Positions 789 to 63,947 of a stretch of DNA of 64,000 nucleotides are shown in pieces. Below the pieces are notes generated by a model, which was given only the letters and a program-made list of their open reading frames with translations, was not told where the DNA came from and searched no databases. Within the stretch, counting starts at the first letter, position 1. Every line of letters starts with the position of its first letter. The position numbers and the translations under genes are program-made. The DNA is from a virus, in IMG/VR virus record IMGVR_UViG_3300020392_000004, one strand, 5' to 3'.

Positions 789-1771
789 TTTTGTTTTCTC
801 TGTGCTTTCTTCTTTTCTCTATGTGCCTTTCTATCAAAGTATTCATAACTATCAAAATTGTTTATAAAATCAGACTTTCTAGTATTTGTTTCTCCATATA
901 TGTCGTGTTCCCAACACCTCTTTGAGTATTCTTCAAAGAGTTCTCTTTCTAATATGGGTTCTATACCATGATATCTAGATTTTCTTCCGTCATATCTACA
1001 CGGGTGTCTTGTAAATCCTTCATGCTTGGGATAAAGTTCTCTGTATAATTCGTTATAGCCTGGAGTATCAATTACCCGTCCTTTCTTATTGTAAAAATGT
1101 AAGAATATGTGATAGGAATATTTACCTAAAAAATACTCTCTCCAGTGTGCAACATTTGGGCCCTGATACATTAACAAGTCGCCAGGTTCTAATAATACAG
1201 ATATGGATTCTTTCCTTCTCTTCTTAATCGGAACTGCTTGTGTGTTGTCATATATCTCGCCTGGTTTGTTTACCCAATCAGTTGAGTTGTCGACCCATAT
1301 TGGCCAAGGTCTTTCGTCATCTGACTGATAGTCCAAACATAGTGTTGCACTTATTTCACAACTTGGTCTATCTGCATGTGCTTTTAGATATGCACCTCTT
1401 TCATACTTTCTAGAATATGAATAGGTTTCACCTAAATCCATATCGATTACACCTTTGAGTTTATCCCAACAATATCTGTGTAATGCAACACCCCATGGTG
1501 CATTATAACAACCCATAGATTTTTGTAGTGAATCTTCGGGTGAGTTGTGTATAATATCGTCTTCTCGATATACTATATGACTGAACTGTTCTGTATGTTC
1601 TACAGTTTTCCATGTATCCAAAGTCATTTGTATAATATCCTTTGGTATGAAATCTTTTAGAACGACATAACCTTTCTTCCACAACTTCCAAGTTTCGGGA
1701 TTAGTTTTACCCCTCATTCCTGATTCTTTTACTTCGTATTCTATAGTTCTATCTTCAAATTGCACACGCAT
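785..1771 (-). CDS. 2OG-Fe(II) oxygenase (PKHD/prolyl hydroxylase-like)
   Basis: YSRKYERGAYLKAHADRPSCEISATL (HxD), LEPGDLLMYQG, HWRE; lies between nrdA and nrdB. Confidence 0.85.
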   Translation of the reverse strand: MRVQFEDRTIEYEVKESGMRGKTNPETWKLWKKGYVVLKDFIPKDIIQMTLDTWKTVEHTEQFSHIVYREDDIIHNSPEDSLQKSMGCYNAPWGVALHRYCWDKLKGVIDMDLGETYSYSRKYERGAYLKAHADRPSCEISATLCLDYQSDDERPWPIWVDNSTDWVNKPGEIYDNTQAVPIKKRRKESISVLLEPGDLLMYQGPNVAHWREYFLGKYSYHIFLHFYNKKGRVIDTPGYNELYRELYPKHEGFTRHPCRYDGRKSRYHGIEPILERELFEEYSKRCWEHDIYGETNTRKSDFINNFDSYEYFDRKAHREKKKAQRKQK

Positions 1772-4067
1772 CACAATCTTCCTCACTGTTTGGTGAATCT
1801 ATCAAGGGTGGTATATAATCATTCGACGCTGAATTAGGGTCTGTAATTACATCTTCAACCTTTCCGTCCATAGTATTCTGATAATAAGAAGTCTTCCAAC
1901 CATATTTGTATGTGTTGAGTAAGTCTCTTGCCATTACAGATACAGGGACTTCACCATTTTCATAGTTCTCGGGATTATAAGACCAGTTTCCACTGATTGC
2001 TTGGTCAAAAAACTTCTGCATAACTGCAACTACATTGATATAACCTGTGTTATCAGGCATATCCCATAATATAGTATATGCATTTTTGAGTAAAGAATAC
2101 TGTGGAACAACCTGTTTAAGTGTTCCTTTCTTACTCTTCTTAACCGATAGATGGTCTCTAGGTGGTTCTATACCATTCGTTGCATTAGAGACGACGCTAG
2201 AACTCTCTGACGGCATTTGTGCAGTGAGTGTAGAGTGTCGTAGACCAAACTCTGCAATGTCTTTCCTCAAGTCTTCCCAAGGCATAGTATATATGGGTTC
2301 AACAAGCTCGTCAACATCTTTTTTATATGTATCAATAGGTAATATACCTTTTGAATATTTTGTTCTGTCAAAGTATGCACATTGACCCTTTTCTTTTGCA
2401 ATTGTATTACTAGATTTTAGAAGGTAATATTGGAATCTCTCCGTCAAATCGTGAACCAGTTTCCATGCATTTGGGTCATCATACTTGACCTTGTTCTTTG
2501 CAAGGTAGTGTGCCAGTCCTATGTATCCGATACCAAGACTTCTTCTTGACTCTGTAGATACCTTCGCTGCATTCACTGGATACTCTTGAAAATCTATCAG
2601 TTCTTCAAGTCCTCTCACTGATAAATCACAAAGAGATTCCAACTCTTCATCTTTTACAATACCAACATTGATTGCAGATAATATACATAATGCAATCTCA
2701 CCCTGTCCTTCTATGTGTTGGATAGGGTCTGTTGGTAGTGTAATCTCTTGACATAAATTACTCATGTTTACTTTATCCAAGAACGAACTATGAGTATTAC
2801 TATGGTCTATATTCATGATATAGATTCTGCCAGTCTCTGCTCTTTCTTTCAATAAATCTGTAATTAGTTCTCTTGCATTTACTTTTTTCTTTGGTATGGA
2901 AGTTGCCCTTTCATACTTTTCATATAACTCATTGAACTCCTCTGTTCCAAATGCTTCATATAAGCCTGGAGCTTCATGTGGAGAGAAAAGAGTTATATCC
3001 TCATTTGCAAGAAATCTTTTGTAGAATAATTCACTAAACTGTATAGAGTAATCTAGTTTTCTTACACGGTTGTCCTCTGTTCCTTTGTTGTTCTTTAAGA
3101 CAATAATGTCTTCGATTTCTTGGTGCCATATTGGAAAGTGAACTGTTGCTGAACCCCCTCTGACTCCGTTTTGGGTGCAACACCTAACAGTTGATTCAAA
3201 TTTTTTAAGGAATGGGACGACTCCCGTATGCTGGACTTCGCCTCCTCTAATCCTAGAACCAAGTCCCCTAATTCTTCCTGCGTTAATACCGATTCCAGCT
3301 CGTTGTGCAACATATTTTCCAATGGCCATATCACTTGAGAATATACTGTCGAGAGTGTCGTCTGTGTCAACGAGCACACACGATGCAAATTGTCGTAAAG
3401 GAGTTCGAACTCCCGCCATGATAGGTGTTGGTATATTGATTTTGAATCCACTGATTGCGTCGTAGTATCTTTTGACATAGTCTAACCTTATTTCATTATC
3501 GTAGTTTTTGAAAAGTGTCATGGATATTAACATATACATGAACTGTGGTGTTTCATACACCGTTCCTGTTGACCTATCTTGAACCAAATACTTATCTACA
3601 ATCTGTTGTAGTCCAGCATAGGTAAAGTTTAGGTCTCTTGAGTGTTTGATAAATGTATCACACTTATCAATCTCCTCGTCTGTATACCATGATAGTATAT
3701 CTTTATCGTATACACCATAGTCTATATTTCTTTTTGTTATGTCTTTGAGTGGTGGATATATTTCTGCGTCTTTCCACTTTGTATTGAATACTTGTTTCTG
3801 AATTCCAAAGAGTAATAATCTTGCAGCCACAAACTGATAATTAGGATTCTCTAATGATATCAAATCACTTGCACTTTTGACAAGTATCTTTTGTATTTCT
3901 TTTGTAGTGATACCGTCAAAAAACTGTATACCACTGTTCATTTCTACTAATGATTCTGATACACCTGTAATTCTCTTACAAGCTTTATGAACCATTTTGT
4001 GTATTTTGTCTAGATTGATTTCAACTTTTGACCCGTCTGACTTGACGACTTTGATTTCCCCATTCAT
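1755..4067 (-). CDS. nrdA: ribonucleotide reductase class Ia alpha subunit
   Basis: N-terminal ATP cone (VVKSDG), PTPIMAG, SNLCQEI, C-terminal CDAC. Confidence 0.98.
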   Translation of the reverse strand: MNGEIKVVKSDGSKVEINLDKIHKMVHKACKRITGVSESLVEMNSGIQFFDGITTKEIQKILVKSASDLISLENPNYQFVAARLLLFGIQKQVFNTKWKDAEIYPPLKDITKRNIDYGVYDKDILSWYTDEEIDKCDTFIKHSRDLNFTYAGLQQIVDKYLVQDRSTGTVYETPQFMYMLISMTLFKNYDNEIRLDYVKRYYDAISGFKINIPTPIMAGVRTPLRQFASCVLVDTDDTLDSIFSSDMAIGKYVAQRAGIGINAGRIRGLGSRIRGGEVQHTGVVPFLKKFESTVRCCTQNGVRGGSATVHFPIWHQEIEDIIVLKNNKGTEDNRVRKLDYSIQFSELFYKRFLANEDITLFSPHEAPGLYEAFGTEEFNELYEKYERATSIPKKKVNARELITDLLKERAETGRIYIMNIDHSNTHSSFLDKVNMSNLCQEITLPTDPIQHIEGQGEIALCILSAINVGIVKDEELESLCDLSVRGLEELIDFQEYPVNAAKVSTESRRSLGIGYIGLAHYLAKNKVKYDDPNAWKLVHDLTERFQYYLLKSSNTIAKEKGQCAYFDRTKYSKGILPIDTYKKDVDELVEPIYTMPWEDLRKDIAEFGLRHSTLTAQMPSESSSVVSNATNGIEPPRDHLSVKKSKKGTLKQVVPQYSLLKNAYTILWDMPDNTGYINVVAVMQKFFDQAISGNWSYNPENYENGEVPVSVMARDLLNTYKYGWKTSYYQNTMDGKVEDVITDPNSASNDYIPPLIDSPNSEEDCDACAI

Positions 4068-5092
4068 GCTTTTGCATACTCCTTTAACTTAACTTTTGCA
4101 GAAAGGCCACTGTAAGTATTAGAAGTAATTATATCTACTATTTCATCTTGACTCAAACCATTCAGAACCATGTCATTGATATCTTTTATATCAGATACCC
4201 TTCTATCGTCCCAAATACATACAGACCACCCGAGGTCTATAACCTCATCAATCTTTTTTATTATCTCTGTATTTCTTGGTTCGTTGTCATAAATGAGTAT
4301 TGCATTCTCTTTTATACTATCATCTATCTTTTTGAAATCACTTCCACCAACACTAATTGCATTGGGAAGGAATAAACTATCTATCGGCCCTTCTGTGACA
4401 TAGATAGTTTTTGATTTGTCCACTTTATCAATGTTATAGATGAGTGGAACATCATCTAGGAACCTCATGGTCAAATATCGTAATGGTGAATCATTGATTG
4501 CACGACCACTGATACCGACTAGTTCCCCACTCTCACTAAAGAATGGTATAACAATTCGTGGGTCGTCTCCTAAAACTCTGTCCTTATACTTTTCTGATAA
4601 GATACCTAGAGTCTGTGCATGTGGGACAAACCACAAATCTTTAATCTTTGATTCGGGTATCTTTCTAGATTCTAGAAAGTCCCTTGCAACTATTTTCTCG
4701 TTTGCACGGAAACAGACTGCTGTCAAATCAATTCTCTTCATATTTAGAACTTCTTCACGCGGAGTAAACTTAAAATCGTTTGCACTCGGCATTTTTTTCT
4801 TTCTTCTTGGTGCCTTACCATTTTCTTTTAGCCATTCTTTTATGTATTCCTTATGTATCATAGGGAAATGGTCTTTGAGAAAGTTTACACTTGAAGTTGA
4901 CTTACCACAATTGTGACATTTATATACAAAATTCTGTTGCACTTGGAAATGATATCCTCGTGCTTTGTATGTGTTTTTTGCAGAATCCCCACAATAGGGA
5001 CACCTGTGATTTAGTGTGTTATCATTCTTCCATTTTGCCATATCCAAGAGAGATACGACTTGCGAAAGGTATTTTCTTTCCAACCATAGCAT
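4064..5092 (-). CDS. gp61: DNA primase (T4 gp61-like)
   Basis: Zn ribbon CPYCGDS...CHNC; TOPRIM motifs VTEGPIDSLF, YDNEPRN. Confidence 0.95.
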   Translation of the reverse strand: MLWLERKYLSQVVSLLDMAKWKNDNTLNHRCPYCGDSAKNTYKARGYHFQVQQNFVYKCHNCGKSTSSVNFLKDHFPMIHKEYIKEWLKENGKAPRRKKKMPSANDFKFTPREEVLNMKRIDLTAVCFRANEKIVARDFLESRKIPESKIKDLWFVPHAQTLGILSEKYKDRVLGDDPRIVIPFFSESGELVGISGRAINDSPLRYLTMRFLDDVPLIYNIDKVDKSKTIYVTEGPIDSLFLPNAISVGGSDFKKIDDSIKENAILIYDNEPRNTEIIKKIDEVIDLGWSVCIWDDRRVSDIKDINDMVLNGLSQDEIVDIITSNTYSGLSAKVKLKEYAKA

Positions 5093-5098
5093 ACATCT

Positions 5099-5127
5099 AT
5101 AATACTATAAATGTGGTATTTTTTCAA
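5099..5127 (-). promoter_or_regulatory. sigma70-type promoter of primase
   Basis: TTGAAA-N17-TATTAT, 6 nt before ATG. Confidence 0.65.
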
Positions 5128-5942
5128 GAGGGTTTTCTTACTTCTTCTAACTTCTTTTTGGGAACTTGTAAGACATATCTGTTCTCTACAACTGGTGGTG
5201 TGAGTTTACCTTTTGGTCTTGCAATTAATCCAGCTGAAGTTATCAATAATAGGATTGCCAGCGGGTCAAATACAAAAATCAAGGCAAAAATGACCCACCT
5301 TACAGCGTTGTCAAGATACTTGACAGATTCTTCTTGTCCGTATATAACCTCTGCAACATACTTAATTGGCCCTATTTCTCCCTCTTGTTCTAATTGTAAT
5401 CTCTGTAAAGGTAATTTATCCTCATTTAATTTTACTATATCATCTACTATTATGTCAATATCATTTGCAATTTCTATTCTCTCGTCCCTCTGTCTTCTAT
5501 CGATATAGTTTCTATCTTGTGGTCTTGCAGTGACAATAATATTATCAAGGTTTGCAACTCTATCCTCTAGTCTGTTTAGTTGAGCTTCTTTTGCACCTAT
5601 TCTCTTATCAATGATAGACATTTCTAGGGTGTAAGAGTCACCTACAAGTGTAGTTTCTATGTTTGCTTTGGATAGATAACCAAATATACCTAATGAAGTA
5701 ATTAACATGAGTATGAACACCGATAGGGTGAGATAGTATTTCATGTAGTTAAGTCTATCCCAAAATAGGTGTAGGTATGTTGCAGTGACTATCTTACCAA
5801 ACTCTAATGCAGTCATCATAACTACGGTTCCCATAAATGCTCCAGCAAATATGGTTGCCATACCTATGACTGAAAAGTATGCAGCGATACCAGCGATACC
5901 CAAAGATGTCGCAAGTGCAAGATAGTTTAAGAATCTTTCCAT
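5124..5942 (-). CDS. membrane protein with central coiled coil (conserved in marine T4-like phages)
   Basis: Three N-terminal hydrophobic helices, coiled coil, C-terminal TM (IFVFDPLAILLL). Confidence 0.8.
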   Translation of the reverse strand: MERFLNYLALATSLGIAGIAAYFSVIGMATIFAGAFMGTVVMMTALEFGKIVTATYLHLFWDRLNYMKYYLTLSVFILMLITSLGIFGYLSKANIETTLVGDSYTLEMSIIDKRIGAKEAQLNRLEDRVANLDNIIVTARPQDRNYIDRRQRDERIEIANDIDIIVDDIVKLNEDKLPLQRLQLEQEGEIGPIKYVAEVIYGQEESVKYLDNAVRWVIFALIFVFDPLAILLLITSAGLIARPKGKLTPPVVENRYVLQVPKKKLEEVRKPS

Positions 5943-5945
5943 AAT

Positions 5946-6683
5946 TTAACGGGTGTAGATATCAAATTTTTTCTTTTTCTTTTTTCTTCCTAGTGCTGTA
6001 GGAGCCATTGATATACCAGCTCCTGTTGAATTCACGGGTGCATCTTCTTTCATATCATAATCTATATACTCTCCTAATTCTTCTGCAAGTTTGACACCAG
6101 CGTCATAATCAGAAGGATAATGTAATCCTGCTAGAACTCTACCGAATCCACAAATTTTTGCACCTTTGAAGAGTCCTGCTCTGTGTTGTGGATATAGTCT
6201 ACTATAAATCTCTGCAACCACAAAAGGTTGAACTGTATGTCCACTAGGATATGAAGGTGATTTACTTGTTTCTGTTGAGAATTTATCTAAATCCATTTTC
6301 AATTTCTCTGCAACTTGATATGGTCTTGCACGATTGAAATGATTTTTATAGTGTCTTATGATAGGTGAACATTGTTCTTCGATATACTCTATGTTATCTT
6401 CATCGTAATCTAAATCATGTTCGTCCAAATATTCTTTTATGTAATATGAAGCGTCTTCGTCACAATTGATATATTGTTTTTTCTGTTCGTCTGTTGTGGT
6501 CTCTATGTATTCTACGACTTGTCTTATTTCTTTAACCACCGCTTGTCCTTTGGGTGGAGCTCCCAACATAATCTTTTGCCAACCGTCTTTGAATATTTCT
6601 ATCTTATTATACTTTACTTTTTTCAAATCCTCGATAGGTTTGAAAATCATGTTGTCTATATCTAATACTTCTTTAATATACAT
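5946..6683 (-). CDS. PAP2/haloperoxidase-superfamily phosphatase
   Basis: K-x6-RP (KNHFNRARP), PSYPSGH, R-x5-HYPSD motifs; start placed at MYIKE. Confidence 0.85.
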   Translation of the reverse strand: MYIKEVLDIDNMIFKPIEDLKKVKYNKIEIFKDGWQKIMLGAPPKGQAVVKEIRQVVEYIETTTDEQKKQYINCDEDASYYIKEYLDEHDLDYDEDNIEYIEEQCSPIIRHYKNHFNRARPYQVAEKLKMDLDKFSTETSKSPSYPSGHTVQPFVVAEIYSRLYPQHRAGLFKGAKICGFGRVLAGLHYPSDYDAGVKLAEELGEYIDYDMKEDAPVNSTGAGISMAPTALGRKKKKKKFDIYTR

Positions 6684-7260
6684 CGTCTGCACACACATAC
6701 ACTTTATCTGCATTAACATATCCTTCGTATATGTCAACACCATAGATTTTTGTTTTAAAACTCTTCACTAGACACTCTGTTTTTTCATTATATATTTCGT
6801 CATTTTGGTGGAGTTTTCTTCTTAATCTATATGTTGTGTTCTCCTGTAAGTCCATAAAATCGAGTGCCTCTGTTATATGGTCGGGGTTTAGTTTGTTATT
6901 ATCTTTTAGATATCGATAGAACTTCTCGTATAGTTCTTCTGCTTGTTCGTCACTTAAGTTTGTATGTTCTTTTAGTAATAGTAATGCAACTGCATATGAG
7001 GCAAATTGTGTTTTACCAAAAGGGACTTTCTCTATGATTCTCTTGAGATTAAATACCAGTCTATGTAGTAGAGTTATGGAAGACTTCTCCATTTTAGTTT
7101 TAGGATTGTTCTTGACCATTTTCCCATTCTCGTCCTCTATCTTTTTGATTCTTTTTCCGTCCTTGTCTATAAAACCAAACTTAAAGGCTTTATGTTTCTT
7201 AAACGGTGTGACCAACATTTTAAGTATGCGAAAAACTATAAGTGTATCTACGATTCTCAT
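6673..7260 (-). CDS. conserved hypothetical late protein
   Basis: Long ORF; FRILKMLVTPF...GFIDKDGK motif typical of marine T4-like phages; late promoter upstream. Confidence 0.8.
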   Translation of the reverse strand: MRIVDTLIVFRILKMLVTPFKKHKAFKFGFIDKDGKRIKKIEDENGKMVKNNPKTKMEKSSITLLHRLVFNLKRIIEKVPFGKTQFASYAVALLLLKEHTNLSDEQAEELYEKFYRYLKDNNKLNPDHITEALDFMDLQENTTYRLRRKLHQNDEIYNEKTECLVKSFKTKIYGVDIYEGYVNADKVYVCADDVY

Positions 7261-7265
7261 ACAAC

Positions 7266-7273
7266 TATTTAGG
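7266..7273 (-). promoter_or_regulatory. T4-type late promoter (CCTAAATA)
   Basis: TATAAATA variant 5 nt before ATG 7260. Confidence 0.7.
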
Positions 7274-7278
7274 TATTT

Positions 7279-7650
7279 TTAAAGTTCTCTTAAACGCTGT
7301 GCAAGGTTTAAGTCTATGTCTATATCTGTCTTCCATGTGTTCTCGACATAACCGAGGTATAATAACATGGTTTTTATTGAAGTCCAGTAATTATCGTCTT
7401 TGATTTTGAATTCTAACATTCTCATACATGCATGATAACCAAACACATTGAATAGACATATGATATGATTTAACATGAGTCTTTCTCTCAACTCACCATT
7501 CGTGTGGTATCTGTGTAGTAATCTTTTGAGGTATCTAAATCTTCGTAGGTCTTCTTGGAAGTCTTCCAAGTCCTGACACTGGGGGTCATCATAATGCTTT
7601 AATGCATATGCTTGAAAGTTTTTTGCTGTTATTTTATCAAATAGACTCAT
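7279..7650 (-). CDS. conserved hypothetical protein of T4-like phages
   Basis: YDDPQC...FQEDLRRFRYLKRLL...RLMLNHII motif. Confidence 0.85.
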   Translation of the reverse strand: MSLFDKITAKNFQAYALKHYDDPQCQDLEDFQEDLRRFRYLKRLLHRYHTNGELRERLMLNHIICLFNVFGYHACMRMLEFKIKDDNYWTSIKTMLLYLGYVENTWKTDIDIDLNLAQRLREL

Positions 7651-7735
7651 AATGTAATAGTATGTAGGTGACCCCGAAGGGTAAAGTTCACAGTTCTTCC
7701 AGTGAGATTAGTCACTGTAGATTGGACACGACTCC

Positions 7736-8149
7736 TTAATCTAATGAACCGTAAACTTTATAACAACCATTATCTAGTTGTTCATACTTCACATTAAGGT
7801 TAATAATCTTCTCTTCTTTTTCGAATTCGTCAATAGGTGTGTCAACAGACTTCCCTGTGATTTCTCCGAATTTAGAAAATGCAAGACTAAATTCACCTTC
7901 TTCTAATGTAAAGTCTAAATCCTCATCTGCAGCCTGGGGATTTAGTCCAATTTGTGAGAGTTTGGCTTTCATTTGTTCTACTGCAGCTTTTGGGTTTAAG
8001 TATTCTGATACTGCAACATGACCTAATAGTGCATTGACTCTATCTTTTACTTCAGCATCGTCAATTTCGTATGGAACAAAACCTGCTGTTCTTAAATCAA
8101 ATCCTTCTCGACCATGATTTTCTGTGATAAAATTTTTAAATGTTTTCAT
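7736..8149 (-). CDS. hypothetical protein with capsid-targeting-like N-terminus
   Basis: MKTFKNFITE resembles the T4 internal-protein capsid targeting sequence. Confidence 0.75.
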   Translation of the reverse strand: MKTFKNFITENHGREGFDLRTAGFVPYEIDDAEVKDRVNALLGHVAVSEYLNPKAAVEQMKAKLSQIGLNPQAADEDLDFTLEEGEFSLAFSKFGEITGKSVDTPIDEFEKEEKIINLNVKYEQLDNGCYKVYGSLD

Positions 8150-8412
8150 TATTGCTCCACTGCTATACCAACACCGAGGACTTCTGCATTTGCAGCGAAT
8201 ACCTCGTCACTTGGGTCTTTCACTATTATTTCACTTGCACCTCCACCTAGGGTAAATGTCCCTATAAGTGAATTTGCACTGGTTTCTACAGAAACTAATC
8301 TATTTGTAGTTCCTGAATTTACGACTCTAACATGTGTTGCACTTCCAAAGTTTGAACCATTTGTTGTGCTAGTTCCACATGCAGCTTCTGAACCTAATAC
8401 TTTAATTTTCAT
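8149..8412 (-). CDS. small putative virion structural protein
   Basis: Beta-rich 87 aa; AGAGGA SD; within late cluster. Confidence 0.7.
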   Translation of the reverse strand: MKIKVLGSEAACGTSTTNGSNFGSATHVRVVNSGTTNRLVSVETSANSLIGTFTLGGGASEIIVKDPSDEVFAANAEVLGVGIAVEQ

Positions 8413-8426
8413 AACTATCCTCTAAA

Positions 8427-8978: not shown

Positions 8979-8993
8979 ATTTCTATCCTCTCT

Positions 8994-11149: not shown

Positions 11150-11152
11150 TTG

Positions 11153-53174: not shown

Positions 53175-53231
53175 AAAGCCTCTTGTCAAATAGAAAATAT
53201 GTGATAAGATGAATATGTTCCCGAGAGGGTA

Positions 53232-53813: not shown

Positions 53814-53983
53814 TAAATACTCCAGCCTGACAGTATCATAATGCCAAAAGGTAATAATATGGGAAGAGTCAACAGTGTTAGAAATTCTACTGCTTCTATC
53901 AACATTGATATTATCTTTGTATCAATAATGTTTTCGATTCTCACCACCATGCTCTTCACAATCTCTAAAATTGTTGCGGTCAT
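53813..53983 (-). CDS. small membrane protein (56 aa)
   Basis: AGGA SD; MTATILE...VEFLTLLTLPILLPFGIMIL. Confidence 0.6.
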   Translation of the reverse strand: MTATILEIVKSMVVRIENIIDTKIISMLIEAVEFLTLLTLPILLPFGIMILSGWSI

Positions 53984-54081
53984 GGTTTTCCTAAAATTAG
54001 TTATAAAGAAGACTTATGATGTATTATAATCATAAATTATCCGTAGTATATATATGATTCAAAAGTCTAACAAAAATATTT

Positions 54082-56008: not shown

Positions 56009-56673
56009 CCTGTATTCCATATCACTAGAGATTGTCTAACTCCTCTAGTCACGGGTGTCACTTGGTGGTGCAACCATGAAGGAAACACCAAGAGAGAACC
56101 AATCTCTTTTCCACTGAAAGGTGCAGTCTGAACAAGGTCGTCTGCACTTATGTTTTGTGATTGAAACTTTAAATTATCAAAAGGTTTACAATGTTCTATC
56201 CATTGAAAATGTCCACCTTCATAATCGTTTGGGTCTGATAATTGAATTGAAGCAGATAGTTTTCTTATCTGACCATTTGGATATGGTTCTGCACCTGCGT
56301 CTGTATGCCATGTATAGAAATCACCTGTAGGTAAATCGGGTTGGTGTTTATAATATGTGTATTGCCATGTCTCCATATCATTTACATCATAGTTCCAACC
56401 TGACATTTTATTTGCAGCCATCATACCGTCAAAAATTTTCTTTTTGAGTTCTTGATTAAACTCGGGGTCGTTATGGTCTAACCATTTGTTTGTTGATTGT
56501 CTTATCTTATTATCTGTATTACCGTCTGTATTACCAGCTGCGTCTTGGTCTTTAGACTTGAATCCTATTCTTGCGTCTATTGTTTCAAGTCTACTTGCAT
56601 ATCCATGAATGTAATCTATATCTTCTCTTGATAGGAAGTTTGGTGTTATACTACAGTAAGTATTATAAAGCAT
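55993..56673 (-). CDS. 2OG-Fe(II) oxygenase (PKHD-type hydroxylase)
   Basis: YTWHTD, RKLS, YEGG, FPSWLHHQVTPVTRGVRQSLV. Confidence 0.9.
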   Translation of the reverse strand: MLYNTYCSITPNFLSREDIDYIHGYASRLETIDARIGFKSKDQDAAGNTDGNTDNKIRQSTNKWLDHNDPEFNQELKKKIFDGMMAANKMSGWNYDVNDMETWQYTYYKHQPDLPTGDFYTWHTDAGAEPYPNGQIRKLSASIQLSDPNDYEGGHFQWIEHCKPFDNLKFQSQNISADDLVQTAPFSGKEIGSLLVFPSWLHHQVTPVTRGVRQSLVIWNTGWPLK

Positions 56674-57116
56674 TATGAACCCGCCATGAACTTTCTCCAA
56701 TCGATTGTATTCTTAATCGTTTGGTGTCTCCAAGTGATATTTTGCATACACTCTTTTAGAAAATTAATTTTAATATTCACAAGTTCTAATGACGCAGAAA
56801 CTTTTTGTAAATCTATATCTGCATTGAAAAATATTTGCATATCATTCTTCATAATTTTTAGACCGTCAAAAGGGTCGGGATTCCACCCTTTCTCTTTAAT
56901 TGTATCATCGTCCATTTTACCATTGAAATATAACCACTTGTCTTTGAGTAAAGTGTTATATTGAAATTGTAGATTTTTCTGTGCGATTACAGCGTCTGTT
57001 AGGTATTCTGAATATTTTGCATGAAGTTTTGGAACCTCAAGTGAAGATTTATCTAGTTCGATATCGTCAATTTCACAATCAACTTTCCATTCTGCTTTCA
57101 AATCATCTAATGTCAT
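56673..57116 (-). CDS. uvsY: recombination mediator UvsY
   Basis: D.EID..ELD..SL..PKLHAKY; IKNTIDWRKF; position. Confidence 0.9.
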   Translation of the reverse strand: MTLDDLKAEWKVDCEIDDIELDKSSLEVPKLHAKYSEYLTDAVIAQKNLQFQYNTLLKDKWLYFNGKMDDDTIKEKGWNPDPFDGLKIMKNDMQIFFNADIDLQKVSASLELVNIKINFLKECMQNITWRHQTIKNTIDWRKFMAGS

Positions 57117-57144
57117 AATATAATTATATCACAAAATGTGATAT

Positions 57145-57681
57145 TTAACTAGTGGATTCTATGTCGTAATATGTAAATCTAAACTCCACAGTTGCAACAA
57201 CGGTTTCACCGTCTGCACCTGATTCTAATTCTATACCACTTAAGGATATAGGGAATGCATCGTGGAATCTAAAGTATTTATTTGCAATATTTTTATTAGT
57301 GTTTGTCACCAATGTTATATCTGAATACTGAACCAAGTCATTATCAATGGAACTTGATACATTTGTTTCAGTCTTTTTTGCACTTACATAATTTGCAAAA
57401 CTTTGTGGGTCTGAAACTGGAACAATAGAATCCATCCAGTCAAATATCTCTTTGAAGTTTTGTAAATCTTCGTCAACTAAAAATGATACATTCAATGTTT
57501 CAAACGAAACTTTGTCGCCTGGAAAGAATGCATCTAAACCAATACCAGCAGCTGCAACAGTTTCAGAAAACTGAAGGCCTGGAATGTTTACAGTCTTCAC
57601 AAAGAACTCAACATTTGGAACTTTGTCTATAAGAAGTCTGAAATTATTCTTACTTAATAGTGATTTATTAATAGTTGTCAT
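57145..57681 (-). CDS. gp3: tail completion / sheath stabilizer (gp3-like)
   Basis: NVEFF...NIPG, PGDKVSF, FLVDEDL, FPISLS. Confidence 0.88.
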   Translation of the reverse strand: MTTINKSLLSKNNFRLLIDKVPNVEFFVKTVNIPGLQFSETVAAAGIGLDAFFPGDKVSFETLNVSFLVDEDLQNFKEIFDWMDSIVPVSDPQSFANYVSAKKTETNVSSSIDNDLVQYSDITLVTNTNKNIANKYFRFHDAFPISLSGIELESGADGETVVATVEFRFTYYDIESTS

Positions 57682-57694
57682 ATAACTATTTAGG

Positions 57695-57910
57695 TTATTT
57701 CTCGTTTACAAATTCATTGAGTTGTCTTGCAACTGCAATTACTTCTTCGGTTGACACAAATTGGTCACCATAAGGTTTTCTATCATTTGGGAAGTTATTG
57801 TTGTGTTCAACAACTGCCTCGTTATTACGATAGATATTACCTTCTAGTAATCCTTGTGCTTGGTTTAGTAATTCGGCTCTGATTTCGAACCCTGATTTTC
57901 CGTTTGACAT
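57695..57910 (-). CDS. conserved hypothetical protein
   Basis: GFEIRAELL..A...; EEVIAVARQLNEFV; GGAGG SD. Confidence 0.8.
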   Translation of the reverse strand: MSNGKSGFEIRAELLNQAQGLLEGNIYRNNEAVVEHNNNFPNDRKPYGDQFVSTEEVIAVARQLNEFVNEK

Positions 57911-57957
57911 AATTTCCTCCTGTGTGTTTGTGTGTTAATGTCCTTATATTTATAGCT

Positions 57958-57986
57958 AAAAAAAACCCTCCGATTGGAGGGTTTTT
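57958..57986 (-). terminator. rho-independent terminator after major capsid gene
   Basis: AAAAACCCUCC-AAUC-GGAGGGUUUUUUUU. Confidence 0.9.
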
Positions 57987-58005
57987 CTTTCGAAACTTAA
58001 TTCGA

Positions 58006-59310
58006 TTACAGAATATTGCTAACAGCCATTTTTCTGTAGTATTGGTTAGTTCCAGCACTTGCTAAACCGTCAGAAGGTGTTGAACCTACGAATGGATTAG
58101 AAACCATACCATATCTAGTTTTGAAACCGATTTTTGGTTGGAAAGTGTTTTCGCCAACTGCTCTCACCATTTGTAGTGGAACATATGGGCAATAGAACAT
58201 ACCAGCGTCATAAGGATTACTTCCTCTATAACCAACAGTCATGTAATCAACACCAGCATATGGGTCGATGTAGACTTTAACTCTTCCGTTTAGGACACCA
58301 GCAAATGTATTACCTGTGTCGTCAACATTGATGTTAGTGTTAAGAGCTGGAGTGTAATCTAATACACCAGCCATTGAAAGTGCAGATGCAACATCAGAAG
58401 AACAAAGAATAAAGTTTCCTTTACCCCTTCTTGTTTCTTTTGCAATTACATTTGATTCTCTTTCAATTTGGAATAATAAACCTTTAAACTTCTCTACAGA
58501 CCATCTTCCGTTTGCATCAACATCAAGGTTAAATGTTCCAGCAGAAGCAGTTGCTGACGCACCTGTTTTTGCTTGTAAGTTAACATTTCTTACAACTTCT
58601 CTGTTGATTTCAGCAAGAATTTCTGATGATAGAATGTTTGCTAGTTCTGATTCTGCATCAAGACCGTGGATTGCTTTGAGGTCTTGTGCTAATTCTAATG
58701 TATACTCTGCTTTGAGTGCTCTTGACTTTGCTGTCACAGTCGCTTTCTCAATAGTGAAAGACATCTGTGCAAAGTGGTTCCCAGCTGCATCACCTAAACT
58801 CTCTGCATTTGCAGTAGACATACCACTACCTGTAGTAGATGAGTATGAAGGTGAAGATGTATCAAATGGGTCACCGATTGGGTCTGAACCCGCAGGGCCT
58901 GCTGTTGGGTCTGCACTACCTGAATAGTCTGAACGAGCTTCATTAAATAAAGCTTCTGAATTGTTCAGTCTTGTTTCTGTTGGGTAGTCATTGTATCTTG
59001 CTTTCATAGCAAAGATAAGACCTGTTGGGCCTGTCATTGGTTGAACACCGCAAATGTCGTATGCAACGAGATTTGGCATAGCTCTTCGAACTAGGGATAT
59101 TAATATTGGATCCCAGTTAGATATTGAGCTACCAGTAGAGTTTAAAGGTGCAGCTTCCTCAAGAGTTGCTCTATCTTCGTTAAGAGCTTTTTCTTGGTTT
59201 TCAAGTATAACTGCTGTGACTGCCTTCTTGTAGTTGTCTTCGATTTTTGGTAAATCGGAGTGTTCTAGAATAGGCTCCCACTTCTCTTGTAAGTTTTCTG
59301 ATAAAAACAT
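58006..59310 (-). CDS. gp23: major capsid protein (gp23-like)
   Basis: LISLVRR, GVQPMTGPTGLIFA, ELAQDLKAIHGLDAE, FQPKIGFKTRYG. Confidence 0.99.
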   Translation of the reverse strand: MFLSENLQEKWEPILEHSDLPKIEDNYKKAVTAVILENQEKALNEDRATLEEAAPLNSTGSSISNWDPILISLVRRAMPNLVAYDICGVQPMTGPTGLIFAMKARYNDYPTETRLNNSEALFNEARSDYSGSADPTAGPAGSDPIGDPFDTSSPSYSSTTGSGMSTANAESLGDAAGNHFAQMSFTIEKATVTAKSRALKAEYTLELAQDLKAIHGLDAESELANILSSEILAEINREVVRNVNLQAKTGASATASAGTFNLDVDANGRWSVEKFKGLLFQIERESNVIAKETRRGKGNFILCSSDVASALSMAGVLDYTPALNTNINVDDTGNTFAGVLNGRVKVYIDPYAGVDYMTVGYRGSNPYDAGMFYCPYVPLQMVRAVGENTFQPKIGFKTRYGMVSNPFVGSTPSDGLASAGTNQYYRKMAVSNIL

Positions 59311-59329
59311 TTTACAGTTCCCCTTTAAA

Positions 59330-60703
59330 TTAACCTAATGGTTTTAGTTTAGTTAAAGCTTCGGAATACCTAGCAATTGAAGGGTCTAAAACCTTCTCTT
59401 CGTCAGAAGAAAATTCTCCAGTTCCTTCTTCTTGCTTGGTTTCCTCGGCAATAGACTCACCGTCTACAGAGAAATAAGCTTCTTTAATTTCTGCAACTTT
59501 CTCTTCGAAATCTGCTTCGTCTGTGAAGTCTATCCCTTTAGATAGTGAAATCAATTTTTCTCGTTGTGATTCAGTTAGGTCTTCACCTGCTTGTTTCACA
59601 ACATTGTCTCTCTTTAATGAACCTAACTCTTCTGTGATGTCCATATTTTTTTGAACTTCACCGTCAAGTTTTGCTTCCATTTCTTCGAGACGATTTGCGA
59701 GTTCGTCAACGACATTATACTTATCTTCGGGGACTTCAACATAATGTTCTACGAACAATGTTTTTAATCCTTCGATAAAGTTTTCTGTCATTTCAGACCT
59801 CAAACCTCTTTCTATTGCAAGTTCGTTTTCTTTCGACCACTCTTCAGCAACATAAGATAGATATTTGTCAACGGCTTCTGATAAGTCACCTTTAACTTTT
59901 TCTATCGAGGTTTTTAATTCTTCTGAATATTGAGATTCCAGTTGTTCTTTAATCTCTTCAACTTTGCTTGTGACAGCAGCTTTGAAGATTGTTTTTGCTT
60001 TTTCTGAATTCTCTTCTGATAATTCTAGTGCTTCTGAAATTTTTGATAGGTCGTCATCTATTTCAATTTCAACTAATGAAGATTCGAGTTCAGCAGAAGT
60101 TTCTTCGTCAACGGCTTCAGATTTGACTGACTCTTCCTTTTCGTCATCGTCATCGTCATCATCTTCTTCTTCGTCTTCCATTCCGTATCCTTCTACGAAT
60201 TTTGCAACATCTTCTTGAGACATTGCCTTCAAACTTTCTACTACTTTTCTTGCGACTTCTGCTTTAGTCAAGGATTCATCGACCTCTTCGTCCTCTTCTG
60301 ACAATGAAGCGAGCATTTCTTTAATACTTGCTTTGTCTAGACCTTTCATCTTGTCGACTACTGCCTTGATATTTTCCATCTTGGAAGTTGTTGATTCATC
60401 TACTTTAGACTCTTCTTCACCTTCTTTGAGTTTCCCACCTTTTTCAGCAGGTGCTGCACCTTTCTTCTGCGCGTCCCCTTCGTTAGAAGGAGCTTTCTCT
60501 GCAGCTTTAACAGATGCTACGGCTTTGTCAACAGGATTTTCTTCAGGCTTGACGACTTCAGCCTTGCCAGATTCAATTTTCTCGGCATCGGATGAACCTT
60601 GTTTAACAGCAGATTTATCGCCCTGTTCTGCACCGTCATGTGGTTGCTTAACTTCAGCAACAACTTCTTCGGTGTTTTCCACTTGGTTTTCTAAATCTGA
60701 CAT
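59330..60703 (-). CDS. gp22: prohead core scaffold protein (gp22-like)
   Basis: KAKTIFKAAV, VDKYLSYVAEEW, acidic; between gp21 and gp23. Confidence 0.93.
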   Translation of the reverse strand: MSDLENQVENTEEVVAEVKQPHDGAEQGDKSAVKQGSSDAEKIESGKAEVVKPEENPVDKAVASVKAAEKAPSNEGDAQKKGAAPAEKGGKLKEGEEESKVDESTTSKMENIKAVVDKMKGLDKASIKEMLASLSEEDEEVDESLTKAEVARKVVESLKAMSQEDVAKFVEGYGMEDEEEDDDDDDDEKEESVKSEAVDEETSAELESSLVEIEIDDDLSKISEALELSEENSEKAKTIFKAAVTSKVEEIKEQLESQYSEELKTSIEKVKGDLSEAVDKYLSYVAEEWSKENELAIERGLRSEMTENFIEGLKTLFVEHYVEVPEDKYNVVDELANRLEEMEAKLDGEVQKNMDITEELGSLKRDNVVKQAGEDLTESQREKLISLSKGIDFTDEADFEEKVAEIKEAYFSVDGESIAEETKQEEGTGEFSSDEEKVLDPSIARYSEALTKLKPLG

Positions 60704-60750
60704 AAATTTCTCCTGTTTATGTAATTATTGATTACTTTTTTATTTATATG

Positions 60751-61404
60751 TTAAAGGCTTTCAACAAACCTTTTCCATAGGTTCAATTTGGTTTCTTGAA
60801 GTTTATTTAACCTTGCAGACTTTAATTCTTTCTGCATTTGGTCAATATCATAAGCTTTCAATCTACCGTTTTCATAAATCCATTCTACACCTTCCATAAT
60901 ACCTTCTACGAAAGCTTCGGGTGCAGACGGGTCTGCAACGATATCACCTGCTGTTGCAAGTTGAAAATCGTCTTTTACATACTGTGCATTTCCTTTAGAT
61001 TCTAGTGAACCTAGACCTCTAGAAGAAACACCCAGTTTTGCACCATCATCTATCAAATTTTTTACTATTTGACCGTTTGGTGTTGATAAAATCTTTGCTC
61101 TCCCAACGAAATTGTTTCCATCTTCTTCTAATTTCGTAATTAAATGGGATACTTTGTCTAAATTGATTGTTGGCCCTTCGGGGTGTCCTAACTCTCCGAA
61201 TGCTCTATCTTTGTTTACGAACTCTTTGTTATACCTTTTTACTTCGTTCTGTATAACTTCTTTAGGGTATATACGACCATTTCGATTTTTAATCTCTGAT
61301 TGCATAAAGATACCCTCGATAAAATAATCTTTTTTACCGTCTTTGTTTTCCTCGACTATTACGGGACTTACCCCGTAGTCATTAAATTCAGAAATTAATT
61401 TCAT
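60751..61404 (-). CDS. gp21: prohead protease (gp21-like)
   Basis: NRNGRIYP, GELGHP, GVSSRGLGS, DIVADPSAP. Confidence 0.97.
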   Translation of the reverse strand: MKLISEFNDYGVSPVIVEENKDGKKDYFIEGIFMQSEIKNRNGRIYPKEVIQNEVKRYNKEFVNKDRAFGELGHPEGPTINLDKVSHLITKLEEDGNNFVGRAKILSTPNGQIVKNLIDDGAKLGVSSRGLGSLESKGNAQYVKDDFQLATAGDIVADPSAPEAFVEGIMEGVEWIYENGRLKAYDIDQMQKELKSARLNKLQETKLNLWKRFVESL

Positions 61405-61681
61405 TTGTTATTTCCTCTATCGATATTCCTTCTTCGGACATGTCTACTAACATATTCTTCACTGCTTTCATACCGACTTTTAAGGACTCTGTGTCCTCGA
61501 AGGTTTCTTGTATCTCTTGTCCGTTTAGAAATACTGTGATACCTTCATCACATTCTGTGTATACAATATTTATACTTTCTTCACCTATTTTGAAGATTTC
61601 TCTTTTGAGTTCTATATGTCCCTCGGGAACCATGAATCTAGATTCATGCAACTCTTGAGATATTTCAGAAAAGGTTCTCAC
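61388..61681 (-). CDS. putative prohead core protein (gp68 position)
   Basis: GTG start overlapping upstream stop; synteny only. Confidence 0.55.
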   Translation of the reverse strand: MRTFSEISQELHESRFMVPEGHIELKREIFKIGEESINIVYTECDEGITVFLNGQEIQETFEDTESLKVGMKAVKNMLVDMSEEGISIEEITNEINF

Positions 61682-61857
61682 TTTTCTACTTCACCTGTTG
61701 AAGTATTATTATCCATCCAGTTAACACTCTTTTCTACTCTTTTCATGTCAACCACTTCTGCAGCTTTCTGTTTGATACCGTCAAAGATTTCACTCTTTGC
61801 TTGTTCTAACTTTCCTGCCTCAATACTATCAACTATTTTATCTGATATTTCACTCAT
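61678..61857 (-). CDS. putative prohead core protein (gp67-like, 59 aa, not in ORF track)
   Basis: MSEISDKIVDSIEAGKLEQAKSEIF...; immediately after portal. Confidence 0.7.
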   Translation of the reverse strand: MSEISDKIVDSIEAGKLEQAKSEIFDGIKQKAAEVVDMKRVEKSVNWMDNNTSTGEVEK

Positions 61858-61859
61858 TT

Positions 61860-63407
61860 CTAAAAGCCTCCAAAGCTATTTCCATCGTCTTCTTCTCCAC
61901 CTTCCTCATTGTCACCCTCTCCTTCTTTAGAGATTTGTTTGTCAATGAGTTTGATTTCGTCTTCCGACTGGTGTAGGACATACTTTCTAACATATTCGTT
62001 TGAATAGTATTTACCTACATAATCACCTATTGCACCAAGAGTATCTAATCTCTCTCTCAATATCTCTGCTTCCTTCAACTCTGTAAAGTGGTTGTCGGTT
62101 GCAAAATCAAAATAGAAGAAGTCCTTTATCTTATCGAACTCTTCTCCATTTACAATATTCTTAAGAACTAATTGTGTCTTAAGGATATCTATAAATGTTC
62201 TTGCAAACTTTGCCTGTAATCTTTGAGTGAACTTATTAAATTTAAGTTCGTCTCTTGAGATTTCTGAAGCACGACCCATGTTAAATCCATTGTCAGCTTC
62301 TAATCTCGTTGCAGGCACATTTAATGACTGATATAACTTCTTCTTGAAGTATTCTATATCGTCAATATCTGCAAGGTTCTGTCCGCCTGGAAGTGTAGTA
62401 ATCTCTGTTCCACGACCACCTTCTCTTCTAGGCAACCAAAAATCTTCAAGCATAGACATGTGTTTTCTATCATCTTTGATTTCACCTGTCTGTGCATTAT
62501 AAACAAGTTTATTTCTATACTTGTTCATTACATCTGCAAGATATTGTTCTGCTTTTGCTTTTGGCAAGTTTCCAACATCAATATAGAAGATTCTTCTTTC
62601 AGGAGCTCTTGATATCCTGTAGATAACAAGTGCATCTTCCATCATCGATAACTGGTTTGCAGTCTTCAATGCCTTATGCAGATATCCAACTACTACATTC
62701 TTTGTGTAGTCTAGAAGGCCACTAGTAGTGTATGAGACGGCTTCAGGTGCAATTCTTACGGTATTACCGTCTGTTGCACTAGATTTGTCAAATCCTTTGT
62801 CATTGAAGACATAGAACTCTTCAATCTTCTCAACTCGTTCTATCTTTGTCTTTGGGTCTTTACCCTTTTCGACATTTCTAACCTTCTTAATTTTAAGTGG
62901 GTCTATGATTCTTAAATCAACCACACCTAAATTAGGTCGTTTGCTATCAACGACCTTATGGAAGTATATCCTTCCATCTACATACCACTTTCTGAATATT
63001 TCATGAGAGTTCTGATTGAACTTCATTAAAGATAAGATATGATTGAACTCGGTGTGTATCTTTTTCTTGATTTTATCAGAGAGATTCACATCTCTCAAAT
63101 CGAGTGTCACAATCTTATCGGAAACATCAGCAGTGATACACTCATTCACGATATCTTCTATCGCAGAGTCACATTCGGGGACTAATGATATCTCACGGTA
63201 TCTACGAATGAGTTCTGCCTCATTCTTGATACCACCTTCCATATCAACATACGCACCATATGCTCCGCCAGATATATACCCAGCTTGTTGTTGAATGACG
63301 GGAGTGCCATCATCGTCAACAGGAGGCACAAACGACTTTGCAGTCTGTGTCTCCTTGACTCTTAACTCGTCTTTCTTACGAGTTATTTCAAACCCAAATA
63401 TTTCCAT
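61860..63407 (-). CDS. gp20: portal protein (gp20-like)
   Basis: WYVDGR, YRISRAPERRIFYIDVG, EDFWLPRREGGRGTEI. Confidence 0.98.
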   Translation of the reverse strand: MEIFGFEITRKKDELRVKETQTAKSFVPPVDDDGTPVIQQQAGYISGGAYGAYVDMEGGIKNEAELIRRYREISLVPECDSAIEDIVNECITADVSDKIVTLDLRDVNLSDKIKKKIHTEFNHILSLMKFNQNSHEIFRKWYVDGRIYFHKVVDSKRPNLGVVDLRIIDPLKIKKVRNVEKGKDPKTKIERVEKIEEFYVFNDKGFDKSSATDGNTVRIAPEAVSYTTSGLLDYTKNVVVGYLHKALKTANQLSMMEDALVIYRISRAPERRIFYIDVGNLPKAKAEQYLADVMNKYRNKLVYNAQTGEIKDDRKHMSMLEDFWLPRREGGRGTEITTLPGGQNLADIDDIEYFKKKLYQSLNVPATRLEADNGFNMGRASEISRDELKFNKFTQRLQAKFARTFIDILKTQLVLKNIVNGEEFDKIKDFFYFDFATDNHFTELKEAEILRERLDTLGAIGDYVGKYYSNEYVRKYVLHQSEDEIKLIDKQISKEGEGDNEEGGEEDDGNSFGGF

Positions 63408-63412
63408 AATAT

Positions 63413-63420
63413 TATTTAGT
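63413..63420 (-). promoter_or_regulatory. late promoter (ACTAAATA)
   Basis: 5 nt before portal ATG. Confidence 0.7.
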
Positions 63421-63449
63421 CTCCCCTAAAGGAGTCTTTTTCACTCGGG

Positions 63450-63947
63450 TTAAACGACTCTTTCCCAGTGAGAATATGTGAAGTCAACTGTAAACTCCTC
63501 TAATGCATCTACTGTTTCGTAATTTAAGTCGATAGCAGCGATGTTTTTAGGGAACATGTTGAAGAATTCATATCTCGCTAGAACTGCGTCATCTTTACCC
63601 AGTTGTTCTACAAAAGCTCTAGATAGTAAGTAATCATTACTTGCCATACCTACACCTGAATCAAGCTCTTGAATATCCTGTTGCCAAGCCTCTAATGCTG
63701 ACCTCGCAGAAAATTCTGAATCATTGATTATGGTCACTGACCAATCTTCAAATGTTCTATCTCCTGCTAATTTAAGATTGTGTCCTCTGAAAGGAACGAT
63801 AATCTCACCTAGGGTTGCAGCTGGAACCTGTGCAGCTTTACAAAGGAACTCAATCCTTTGACCACTACGAGGAATGAAAACTTTAAATCGGTTAGGTCTT
63901 GGGCCTCCTCCGATTAATTGTGCTTTAAATTCATCTATTGTTGCCAT
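63450..63947 (-). CDS. gp19: tail tube protein (gp19-like)
   Basis: GGPRPNRF, AGDRTFEDW, FP...IDL. Confidence 0.95.
   Translation of the reverse strand: MATIDEFKAQLIGGGPRPNRFKVFIPRSGQRIEFLCKAAQVPAATLGEIIVPFRGHNLKLAGDRTFEDWSVTIINDSEFSARSALEAWQQDIQELDSGVGMASNDYLLSRAFVEQLGKDDAVLARYEFFNMFPKNIAAIDLNYETVDALEEFTVDFTYSHWERVV

Follow-up and report, generated by a model that had tools for sequence, protein, structure and literature searches.

Purging of restriction-site words with an exemption at GCC in T4-like phage DNA that carries a methyltransferase/TET cassette

Virus record IMGVR_UViG_3300020392_000004 was analysed over a stretch of 64,000 nucleotides (the window), in which many short words of the restriction-site type are almost completely missing and several of these words survive nearly always in overlap with GCC, or GGC on the other strand. 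The window carries a cassette with a C5 cytosine DNA methyltransferase (MTase) adjacent to a TET/JBP-type dioxygenase, and across related phages this footprint of purge and exemption co-occurs with a modification module encoded at the same genomic position. The pattern in the sequences is probably best explained by the purging of host restriction sites wherever they are not shielded by a modification that the phage makes at GCC. The first-pass annotation of this DNA had proposed that sites are spared where the phage MTase and TET modify an overlapping GC or GCC. The purge, the strand-symmetric exemption and the adjacent C5-MTase and TET genes support that interpretation; "any GC" is too broad, and the footprint is not tied to MTase and TET alone.

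Expected counts for the window come from 100-300 shuffles in which synonymous codons were exchanged among positions of the same amino acid, so that the proteins and the codon usage were kept. The purged words occur 0-9 times against 32-186 expected, GTGCAC being expected only 7 times (Table 1). The absence of GTAC, ACGT and CCGG had been noticed at first pass and is confirmed by exact count; the purges of GATC, CTNAG, GTWAC, GGATG, CGWCG, GCAGCA and GTGCAC had been overlooked, and the purge as measured against the shuffles is real and stronger than first stated. All 88 called open reading frames (ORFs) lie on the minus strand, and the words are depleted in both orientations on this single coding strand. 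Such strand symmetry of both depletion and exemption indicates an effect at the level of DNA rather than mRNA. As in restriction-site avoidance, the depleted words are short and palindromic or type IIS-like, and on both strands their counts fall far short of the codon-preserving shuffles. Free use of GC-containing palindromes, also claimed earlier, holds for TGCA (575 vs 328 expected), GGCC (43 vs 25), AGCT, GCGC and CGCG, which are over-represented or freely used, but not for GTGCAC and GCAGCA. The only GATC of the window lies in the capsid gene gp23, where it is kept although its Ile codon could change synonymously. It has a counterpart at the same place (58283) in G007, an IMG/VR contig 88% identical to the window over ~60 kb, which likewise has a single GATC in 130 kb.

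Table 1. Purged words in the window, with counts expected from synonymous-codon shuffles.
Word	Observed	Expected
GATC	1	186
GTAC	0	139
ACGT	0	113
CCGG	0	32.5
GGWCC	0	37.3
CTNAG	1	157
GTWAC	0	92 (GTSAC 113 observed, 79 expected)
GGATG	9	68
CGWCG	5	46
GCAGCA	1	40
GTGCAC	0	7

The surviving sites reveal the exemption. Exactly 21 CCWGG sites are present and all of them are flanked by G or C so as to form GCCWGG or CCWGGC, as the first-pass annotation had described (Table 2). Sites without this G-C overlap, called unflanked here and written HCCWGGD, HCCAGA or HCGWCGD, are absent for CCWGG (0 vs 26.1 expected; shuffle minimum 15). Given the flanked share of 21% in the shuffles, the probability of 21/21 is ~4e-15. 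For CCAGA, the flanked form GCCAGA stands near expectation (13 vs 11.0) and HCCAGA is almost lost (1 vs 88.9), the lone exception being the one already noted at position 20010. CGWCG behaves similarly, with HCGWCGD at 0 against 36.8 and GCGWCG at 5 against 9.9.

The flanked CCWGG sites are, in 20 of 21 cases, in-frame Pro-Gly codon pairs, mostly written CCA-GGC. Pro-Gly (CCN-GGN) always produces CCWGG or CCSGG, the latter including CCGG, and Gly-Pro (GGN-CCN) always produces GGNCC. In other reading frames, synonymous changes can remove the site, and the surviving CCWGG sites are therefore the unavoidable ones. The preference for GGC in Pro-Gly, claimed earlier, is very strong: 18/20 pairs use it, a codon making up 68 of 1326 Gly codons (5.1%; Fisher 1e-22). 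Likewise, all 21 Gly-Pro pairs use GGC or GGG (2e-20) and none creates GGWCC, in line with the earlier claim. The absence of GGWCC beside 26 GGSCC sites was set aside as proof of an exemption, since an AvaII-type enzyme cutting GGWCC explains it equally well; it is consistent evidence only.

Table 2. Coordinates of features in the window and, where a contig is named, in related loci.
Feature	Position	Strand	Remarks
Window-wide purge	1..64000		GATC, GTAC, ACGT, CCGG, CTNAG, GTWAC, GGWCC, GGATG, GCAGCA, GTGCAC and unflanked CCWGG, CCAGA and CGWCG
21 CCWGG sites	1059..62390		all GCCWGG or CCWGGC; at 1059, 1182, 1260, 2965, 7933, 10461, 13675, 13750, 14958, 15767, 15803, 19455, 25776, 29989, 30028, 45389, 51505, 53047, 57518, 57578, 62386
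26 GGSCC sites	1158..63905		Gly-Pro written GGS-CCN; 8.7 expected; GGWCC 0
14 CCAGA/TCTGG sites	12867..63272		13 as GCCAGA/TCTGGC
Lone unflanked CCAGA	20010..20015		ACCAGA on the coding strand, within DnaB-like helicase gene
5 CGWCG sites	1824..43405		all GCGWCG or CGWCGC; at 1824, 2192, 3458, 13876, 43401
Sole GATC	59109..59112		GGGATCC inside gp23
Sole CTNAG	37311..37315		as GCTGAG
C5 cytosine DNA methyltransferase	28350..29609	-	PF00145, 2.9e-50; probable GCC/GpC modifier
TET/JBP-type 5-methylcytosine dioxygenase	27379..28425	-	PF12851, 2.1e-13, above family cut-off
189-aa protein, family unassigned, possibly PD-(D/E)XK nuclease	26823..27392	-	phrog_10849; variable third cassette gene
P-loop nucleotide kinase-like protein	26287..26826	-	PF18751 Ploopntkinase3, 4.8e-5, below family cut-off
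Slot upstream of DNA polymerase	26287..29650		L182:10386..11834 (G003-type SPPY methylase); L274:1703..5860 (7-deazaguanine module); L256:5815..7955; L263:4316..6386; L241:3501..4841
374-aa DruA-like protein	L186:4213..5337		contig G002
Abrupt change in word content	L285:10200..15467; L291:4700..6192		from CTNAG/GTAC/GTWAC-free to rich DNA
Curli-type secretion cluster	30736..37600		adjoins CHASE2-adenylate/guanylate cyclase
Alternative/plastoquinol-type oxidase	52599..53189		PF01786
Peptide deformylase	46572..47198		
NifU-like Fe-S scaffold	22057..22479		

The MTase matches PF00145 over nearly the whole profile (positions 2-324 of 324; 172 bits, cut-off 22). Its best solved relative is 8YF3, the SpCmoX protein of Synechococcus phage S-B43 (5e-73), with an identity of 42% in a MAFFT alignment and 36% by tblastn. 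Motifs IV (GSPPCPPFS) and VI (ICENVKG) are invariant among the window, the OM43 phage Melnitz and SpCmoX. The carboxymethyl-binding Arg350 of CmoX is replaced by Leu, as IGLMVAP in the window and Melnitz against VGRMVPP in SpCmoX. The MTase is therefore read as an ordinary S-adenosylmethionine-dependent methylase, consistent with its TET partner, and was not filed as CmoX. No CmoA-like protein was seen among the ~50 of 88 called ORFs that were scanned, and neither CmoA nor CmoY among the annotated genes of the window, no dedicated CmoA/CmoY search having been made.

The TET gene overlaps the MTase gene in the same orientation, and the same pair is found in Melnitz, in contigs G006 and G007 and in further IMG/VR loci. 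By motif reading, its protein has H247-x-D249 and a distal His in ...ELHGV..., candidates for the iron-binding residues HxD...H. The third gene encodes a protein of 189 aa with an invariant D78...E92-x-K94; language-model searches gave leads, and leads only, to restriction endonuclease families (0.88-0.89). Its AlphaFold model has a predicted local distance difference test (pLDDT) of 41, too poor for use, and an IMG/VR scan for relatives found none. The position is occupied by an unrelated 331-aa gene in G007 and by a 427-aa gene in Melnitz. The fourth gene, which adjoins MTase and TET in G007, G006 and Melnitz too, likely encodes a kinase for the hydroxymethyl group.

The following mechanism can be proposed. 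Selection would have removed the recognition sites of many host restriction enzymes from the phage DNA. After replication, the C5-methyltransferase would mark the first C of GCC, and perhaps of GCG, whereupon TET would oxidise the mark to 5-hydroxymethylcytosine (5hmC) and the adjoining kinase would probably elaborate it further. A restriction site whose sequence includes the first C of GCC would then carry a bulky base inside the recognition sequence and stay uncut, and an uncut site would not be selected for removal. Where the protein demands Pro-Gly or Gly-Pro, the site is synonymously unavoidable and is written CCW-GGC or GGS-CCN, which places GCC or GGC in each.

The window, with a G+C content of 35.9%, is part of a marine myovirus. 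A Pfam scan shows it to be T4-like (gp23 capsid, gp20 portal, prohead protease, gp43 polymerase, gp44/45 clamp loader and clamp, UvsX, UvsW, gp46/47 and ribonucleotide reductase). Among cultured phages, protein searches place it nearest to Melnitz (67% for gp23 and 55% for the MTase) and to two pelagimyophages, HTVC008M and Mosig. A megablast of phage records with the window returned only a 44-base match in the polymerase gene, and a scan of bacterial genomes for MTase relatives, as a lead to the host, gave only matches of 25-45% identity in scattered metagenome-assembled genomes. Melnitz, with a cassette of MTase, TET, an unassigned gene and kinase, obeys the same rule: its 68 CCWGG and 15 CCGG sites are all flanked, and GGWCC is absent beside 60 GGSCC. 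The 80 MTase-bearing IMG/VR loci (956 kb) contain 131 CCWGG sites (3 unflanked), 40 CCGG sites (2 unflanked), 7 GGWCC against 409 GGSCC and, with L040 and L083 left out, no GTGCAC against 169 expected.

In HTVC008M and contig G002, which have no MTase, unflanked CCWGG sites number 112 and 62, and GGWCC sites 73 and 46, respectively. S-B43, in which a GC-specific cytosine modification has been demonstrated by experiment (PMC12783734) and which served as a positive control, purges only CCGG (5 vs 80), and all five survivors are GC-flanked. Not every purge is common to the relatives with a module: sublineages differ in whether they have lost GATC, GTAC, ACGT, CTNAG, GTWAC, GGATG, CCAGA and CGWCG or keep them at normal levels. 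These differences, together with the boundaries seen in mosaic contigs, divide the purged words into two classes, clade-wide and lineage-specific. The mosaics are L285 and L291, in which a stretch lacking CTNAG, GTAC and GTWAC gives way abruptly to one where these words abound, at a point within the polymerase gene or shortly behind it; recombination between differently scrubbed lineages or chimeric assembly could be the cause. L285 also has a Mom-like gene after the polymerase gene. As for HTVC008M, in which no DNA methylase was recognised (L004-L006), it purges words of its own, namely TCGA (2 vs 95), GGCC, CACTG/CAGTG and CCGA.

The cassette occupies a slot between the peroxiredoxin/Hsp20 genes and a 105-aa ORF upstream of the DNA polymerase gene. 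From 80 loci fetched with the polymerase as an anchor, those with a fully contained slot were classified by their slot content (Table 3). Pooled, the loci with a module have 1 unprotected site against 190 GC-overlapped ones, and those without have 124 against 30 (Fisher ~3e-63, on loci that are mutually related). On a quick polymerase tree, the loci lacking a module fall in separate groups, with G002 inside a module-less clade, and Melnitz versus HTVC008M provides a further contrast. At least three independent transitions can be placed on this tree and the footprint follows the module each time. It thus tracks a modification module in the slot, and not MTase/TET specifically.

Table 3. Slot content and site counts in loci with a fully contained slot (unprotected sites are HCCWGGD plus GGWCC).
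Slot content	Loci	Unprotected sites	GC-overlapped sites
C5-MTase/TET	7	0	67
SPPY-methylase type	12	0	100
QueD/QueE/QueC/FolE and unassigned 430-aa protein (L274)	1	0	9
Unassigned protein of 423-446 aa, in 2 of 3 with TET-associated glycosyltransferase (PF20691)	3	1	14
DruA-like gene only	13	100	26
Empty	3	24	4

Contig G003 (151 kb, syntenic with the window) illustrates the replacement. Neither protein nor Pfam searches found a C5-MTase or a TET in it, and its footprint is complete: none of 52 CCWGG sites is unflanked, GGWCC is absent and GCCAGA stands at 15 against 2 HCCAGA. A CCCG purge specific to its lineage shows the same GCC exemption. Its slot encodes a 482-aa protein with a weak match to the N4-cytosine/N6-adenine methyltransferase family PF01555 (27.2 bits, cut-off 26.7, only 70 of 221 profile positions) and TSPPY at residue 336, a motif typical of N4-cytosine methylases; a search for a solved structural relative of this protein gave none. 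The bias in relatives lacking the cassette had been named at first pass as a reason to abandon the interpretation. Taken literally, G003-type phages are such relatives, yet they carry another module, and relatives with nothing in the slot lack the bias.

In the slot of the footprint-less phages, the 374-aa protein of G002 and its homologues match Druantia DruA (PF14236, 2.6e-9). A member of this defence-system family is unexpected in the neighbourhood of a phage polymerase. HTVC008M carries a homologue of the gene downstream of its polymerase.

How far the exemption reaches was assessed by a whole-genome scan without preset motifs, covering C-starting motifs with a depletion of 20-fold or more after A, C or T. 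In module-bearing genomes, the strongly purged motifs that start with CC are mostly at or near expectation after G. This holds for CCAGA in the window, G007 and G003, for CCTGCA in G007, G006 and Melnitz, for CCTGA in G006 and Melnitz, for CCCGT, CCTCC and CCGGT in Melnitz and for CCCG in G003, so that about eight unrelated motifs obey the same rule. CCGG is the exception among them, its G-preceded form being lost in the window (0/7.5) and G003 (0/6.0) and partly spared in G007 (5/16.7). Motifs that start with CT (CTNAG, CTTAAG) or CA are not spared after G. At the spared sites, the base before G and the base after CC vary freely, and the protected context is most simply described as the trinucleotide GCC, to which the five CGWCG sites may add GCG in the lineage of the window. 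In this respect, the earlier wording that overlap with GC or GCC exempts a site stands for GCC and for those GCG sites, but not for GCA or GCT.

Several observations weigh against protection at GCC by the phage's own modification. Preceding G does not spare GCTNAG (1/40), GCATCC (2/11) or GCCGG (0/7 expected) in the window, nor GCGCG in Melnitz. G003-type relatives show the same footprint without MTase and TET, which requires that the SPPY methylase, the 7-deazaguanine module and the unassigned protein with its glycosyltransferase would all protect GCC/GGC. All lineages with a module have purged GGWCC as well as the unflanked forms of CCWGG and CCGG, although their other purged words differ, a pattern that is odd for purely host-driven selection. 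Finally, HTVC008M keeps CCGA mainly as GCCGA (13/16), an exemption-like pattern with no recognised modifier, even if 6 of these sites are TGGCCGA and a conserved element may explain them instead.

An unlikely variant holds that the mechanism is the same and that every GpC is modified, the restriction to GCC reflecting enzymes that are blocked when the C at position 1 of their site is modified. For CmoX, the solved protein closest to the MTase, a GC motif suffices (PMC12783734), and some TET-linked MTases accept GCN (PMC8256090). The five CGWCG survivors, all GCG-flanked, and the lone CTNAG (Table 2) would fit as well. The exemptions are nevertheless nearly always GCC and never GCA or GCT, since the window has largely lost its GCTNAG and GCATCC sites and GCTTAAG in Melnitz stands at 3 against 10 expected; judging from the sequences, the target seems to be GCC and not GC in general. 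Base composition gives weak evidence as well, GCA being enriched and GCC, GCT and GCG depleted relative to controls. GCA makes up 56-60% of all GCN in MTase/TET genomes against 44-49% in HTVC008M and S-B43, and 69-73% of Ala codons against 53%. This excess may, weakly, be a footprint of the cost or decay of modified GCB. The purge of GCAGCA, accompanied by over-representation of GCAGCB in the window, had been considered a sign of unmodified GCA and was dropped because the module-less G002 has the same skew (13 vs 77).

It is improbable that no phage modification is involved and that the selecting agents ignore G-preceded sites, or that a shared factor unrelated to the slot protects GCC. Such an explanation would account for one footprint accompanying four chemically different modules, and for the GCCGA sites of HTVC008M. 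It would demand the same flank rule from the eight or so unrelated motifs, palindromic and asymmetric alike, and we know of no restriction enzyme with an H...D flank requirement. In addition, the footprint is absent wherever the slot is empty or holds the DruA-like gene only, a search for genes common to all footprint genomes and missing from the others returned only cassette genes, and S-B43 as a positive control shows GC-flanked survivors in a GC-modified phage.

More doubtful still is that the nuclease or nucleases come from the phage, for instance for the degradation of host DNA known from chlorella viruses and T4, its genome avoiding or modifying the sites of its own nucleases. The 189-aa cassette protein, with its D...ExK motif and weak restriction-enzyme leads, is the candidate. 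The CTNAG purge accompanies its gene in the window, in L007 and, with the exception of the mosaic L285, in the eight P0002 loci L283-L290; a purge of CCNGG and GGWCC common to all module-bearing lineages would also suit a phage-encoded agent. Against this, G007, G006, Melnitz and G003 show the clade-wide purge but lack the gene, and L292 has it with CTNAG sites right beside (L291 is a mosaic as well). No candidate nuclease gene is common to all footprint genomes, and many nucleases would have to be assumed for ten or more motifs.

That the pattern arose from codon, dipeptide or mutational bias, with no restriction at work, is hardly credible: generic context biases do exist in the window (GCTA, AAAAAA, TpA), but no shuffle that preserves proteins and codon usage comes near the observed zeros, the words concerned belong to the classic restriction sites and are depleted on both strands, the rare GGC codon stands exactly after Pro in nearly every Pro-Gly pair, and the missing words differ sharply between sublineages and across the abrupt boundaries of the mosaic contigs.

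Across the relatives, unrelated DNA-modification modules replace one another in the slot, which makes it a swap site. It is possible, though less likely than not, that the modules, of at least four different chemistries, have all converged on protecting GCC/GGC, their specificity having evolved to cover the blind spots that the genetic code leaves in site avoidance. GCC/GGC is a context that can be written into Pro-Gly (CCNGG) and Gly-Pro (GGNCC), the two dipeptides with sites beyond the reach of synonymous change. Four chemistries acting on GCC/GGC could also reflect a constraint, a replacement being viable only if it covers the sites that were retained, or an unseen factor.

Clusters of C5-MTase and TET (5mYOX) are already known, as are their GpC[C/T] preference and the avoidance of restriction sites. 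TET-linked phage MTases methylate GpC[C/T], one clade GpC[C/T/G] and not GpCA, another any GpC (Burke et al. 2021, PMC8256090). The window resembles these clusters in the adjacent C5-MTase, TET/JBP and P-loop kinase, and the published GpC[C/T] or GpC[C/T/G] specificity matches its apparent GCC exemption. There, the specificity was determined by expression in E. coli; here, it is read from the complementary site purge in the phage genome, and the window's cassette has no glycosyltransferase. SpCmoX of S-B43 was characterised as a C5-carboxymethyltransferase that needs a GC motif by nanopore and oligonucleotide assays (PMC12783734). The SPPC motif is shared, as a GC-specific modification would be, and S-B43 also keeps CCGG only if GC-flanked. 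S-B43 differs in that neither CCWGG nor GGWCC is purged, and its CmoX in having Arg350 and in belonging to a CmoX/CmoA/CmoY system for 5-carboxymethylcytosine, with CmoA as the Cx-SAM synthase, where the MTase of the window is paired with TET.

Site avoidance itself is classical: Staphylococcus phage K is free of GATC and GGNCC, some Bacillus phages are free of GGCC, and T7 is another example. The near-total loss of short palindromic host restriction sites is common to these phages and the window. In the window, avoidance is combined with a context-limited modification, the survivors reveal the specificity of the modifier and amino-acid usage is reached. Orphan or multispecific phage methylases, such as those of SPbeta and phi3T (GGCC and GCNGC) and M.CviPI of a chlorella virus (GpC), are likewise phage cytosine methylases with a short target that protect overlapping restriction sites. 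They methylate the full restriction site, whereas the trinucleotide target in the window would protect only an overlapping subset, the rest being purged. For the 7-deazaguanine modification of phage CAjan, a GGC motif has reportedly been found. The relative L274 has QueD/QueE/QueC/FolE in the same slot with the same footprint; this chemistry acts on G and not on C, is absent from the window, and may have GGC as its target in these phages. Modification of DNA with 7-deazaguanines (preQ0/dG+) involving DpdA has been described by Hutinet et al. 2019 (cited in PMC12783734).

The literature that was searched holds no report of such a sharp exemption footprint, of its use to derive specificity or function in vivo, or of a swap site for modules. 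For Melnitz, it was mentioned that the methylase might protect against restriction, with nothing further on the point (PMC9004378). A GpC-limited, post-replicative hypermodification has been judged unlikely to protect a genome from restriction by the groups that discovered the phage MTase/TET clusters, who left its role open (bioRxiv 10.1101/2023.12.21.572611). The footprint speaks to this doubt of the 2023 preprint, since it suggests how a genome could be protected even if few of its sites are modified: synonymous change would remove every removable site, the modification would serve the remainder, and the survivors would reveal GCC as the target in vivo. Melnitz, which is in culture on OM43, follows the rule. 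The footprint offers a way of predicting, from sequence alone, what phage modification enzymes recognise and which restriction systems uncultured marine hosts possess, and it points to a hot-spot for the exchange of unrelated modification modules. Restriction pressure appears to reach amino-acid usage as well. The observed/expected ratio of Pro-Gly is 0.39-0.58 in footprint genomes against 0.65-1.08 in controls, a roughly two-fold depletion which suggests that even protected sites carry a cost.

Elsewhere in the window, a curli-type secretion cluster (CsgG, a CsgF-like protein, two curlin-repeat proteins and a FecR-domain protein) adjoins a CHASE2-adenylate/guanylate cyclase, and the arrangement is kept in Melnitz, HTVC008M, G002 and G003. 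Auxiliary genes include an alternative/plastoquinol-type oxidase, a peptide deformylase and a NifU-like Fe-S scaffold (Table 2).

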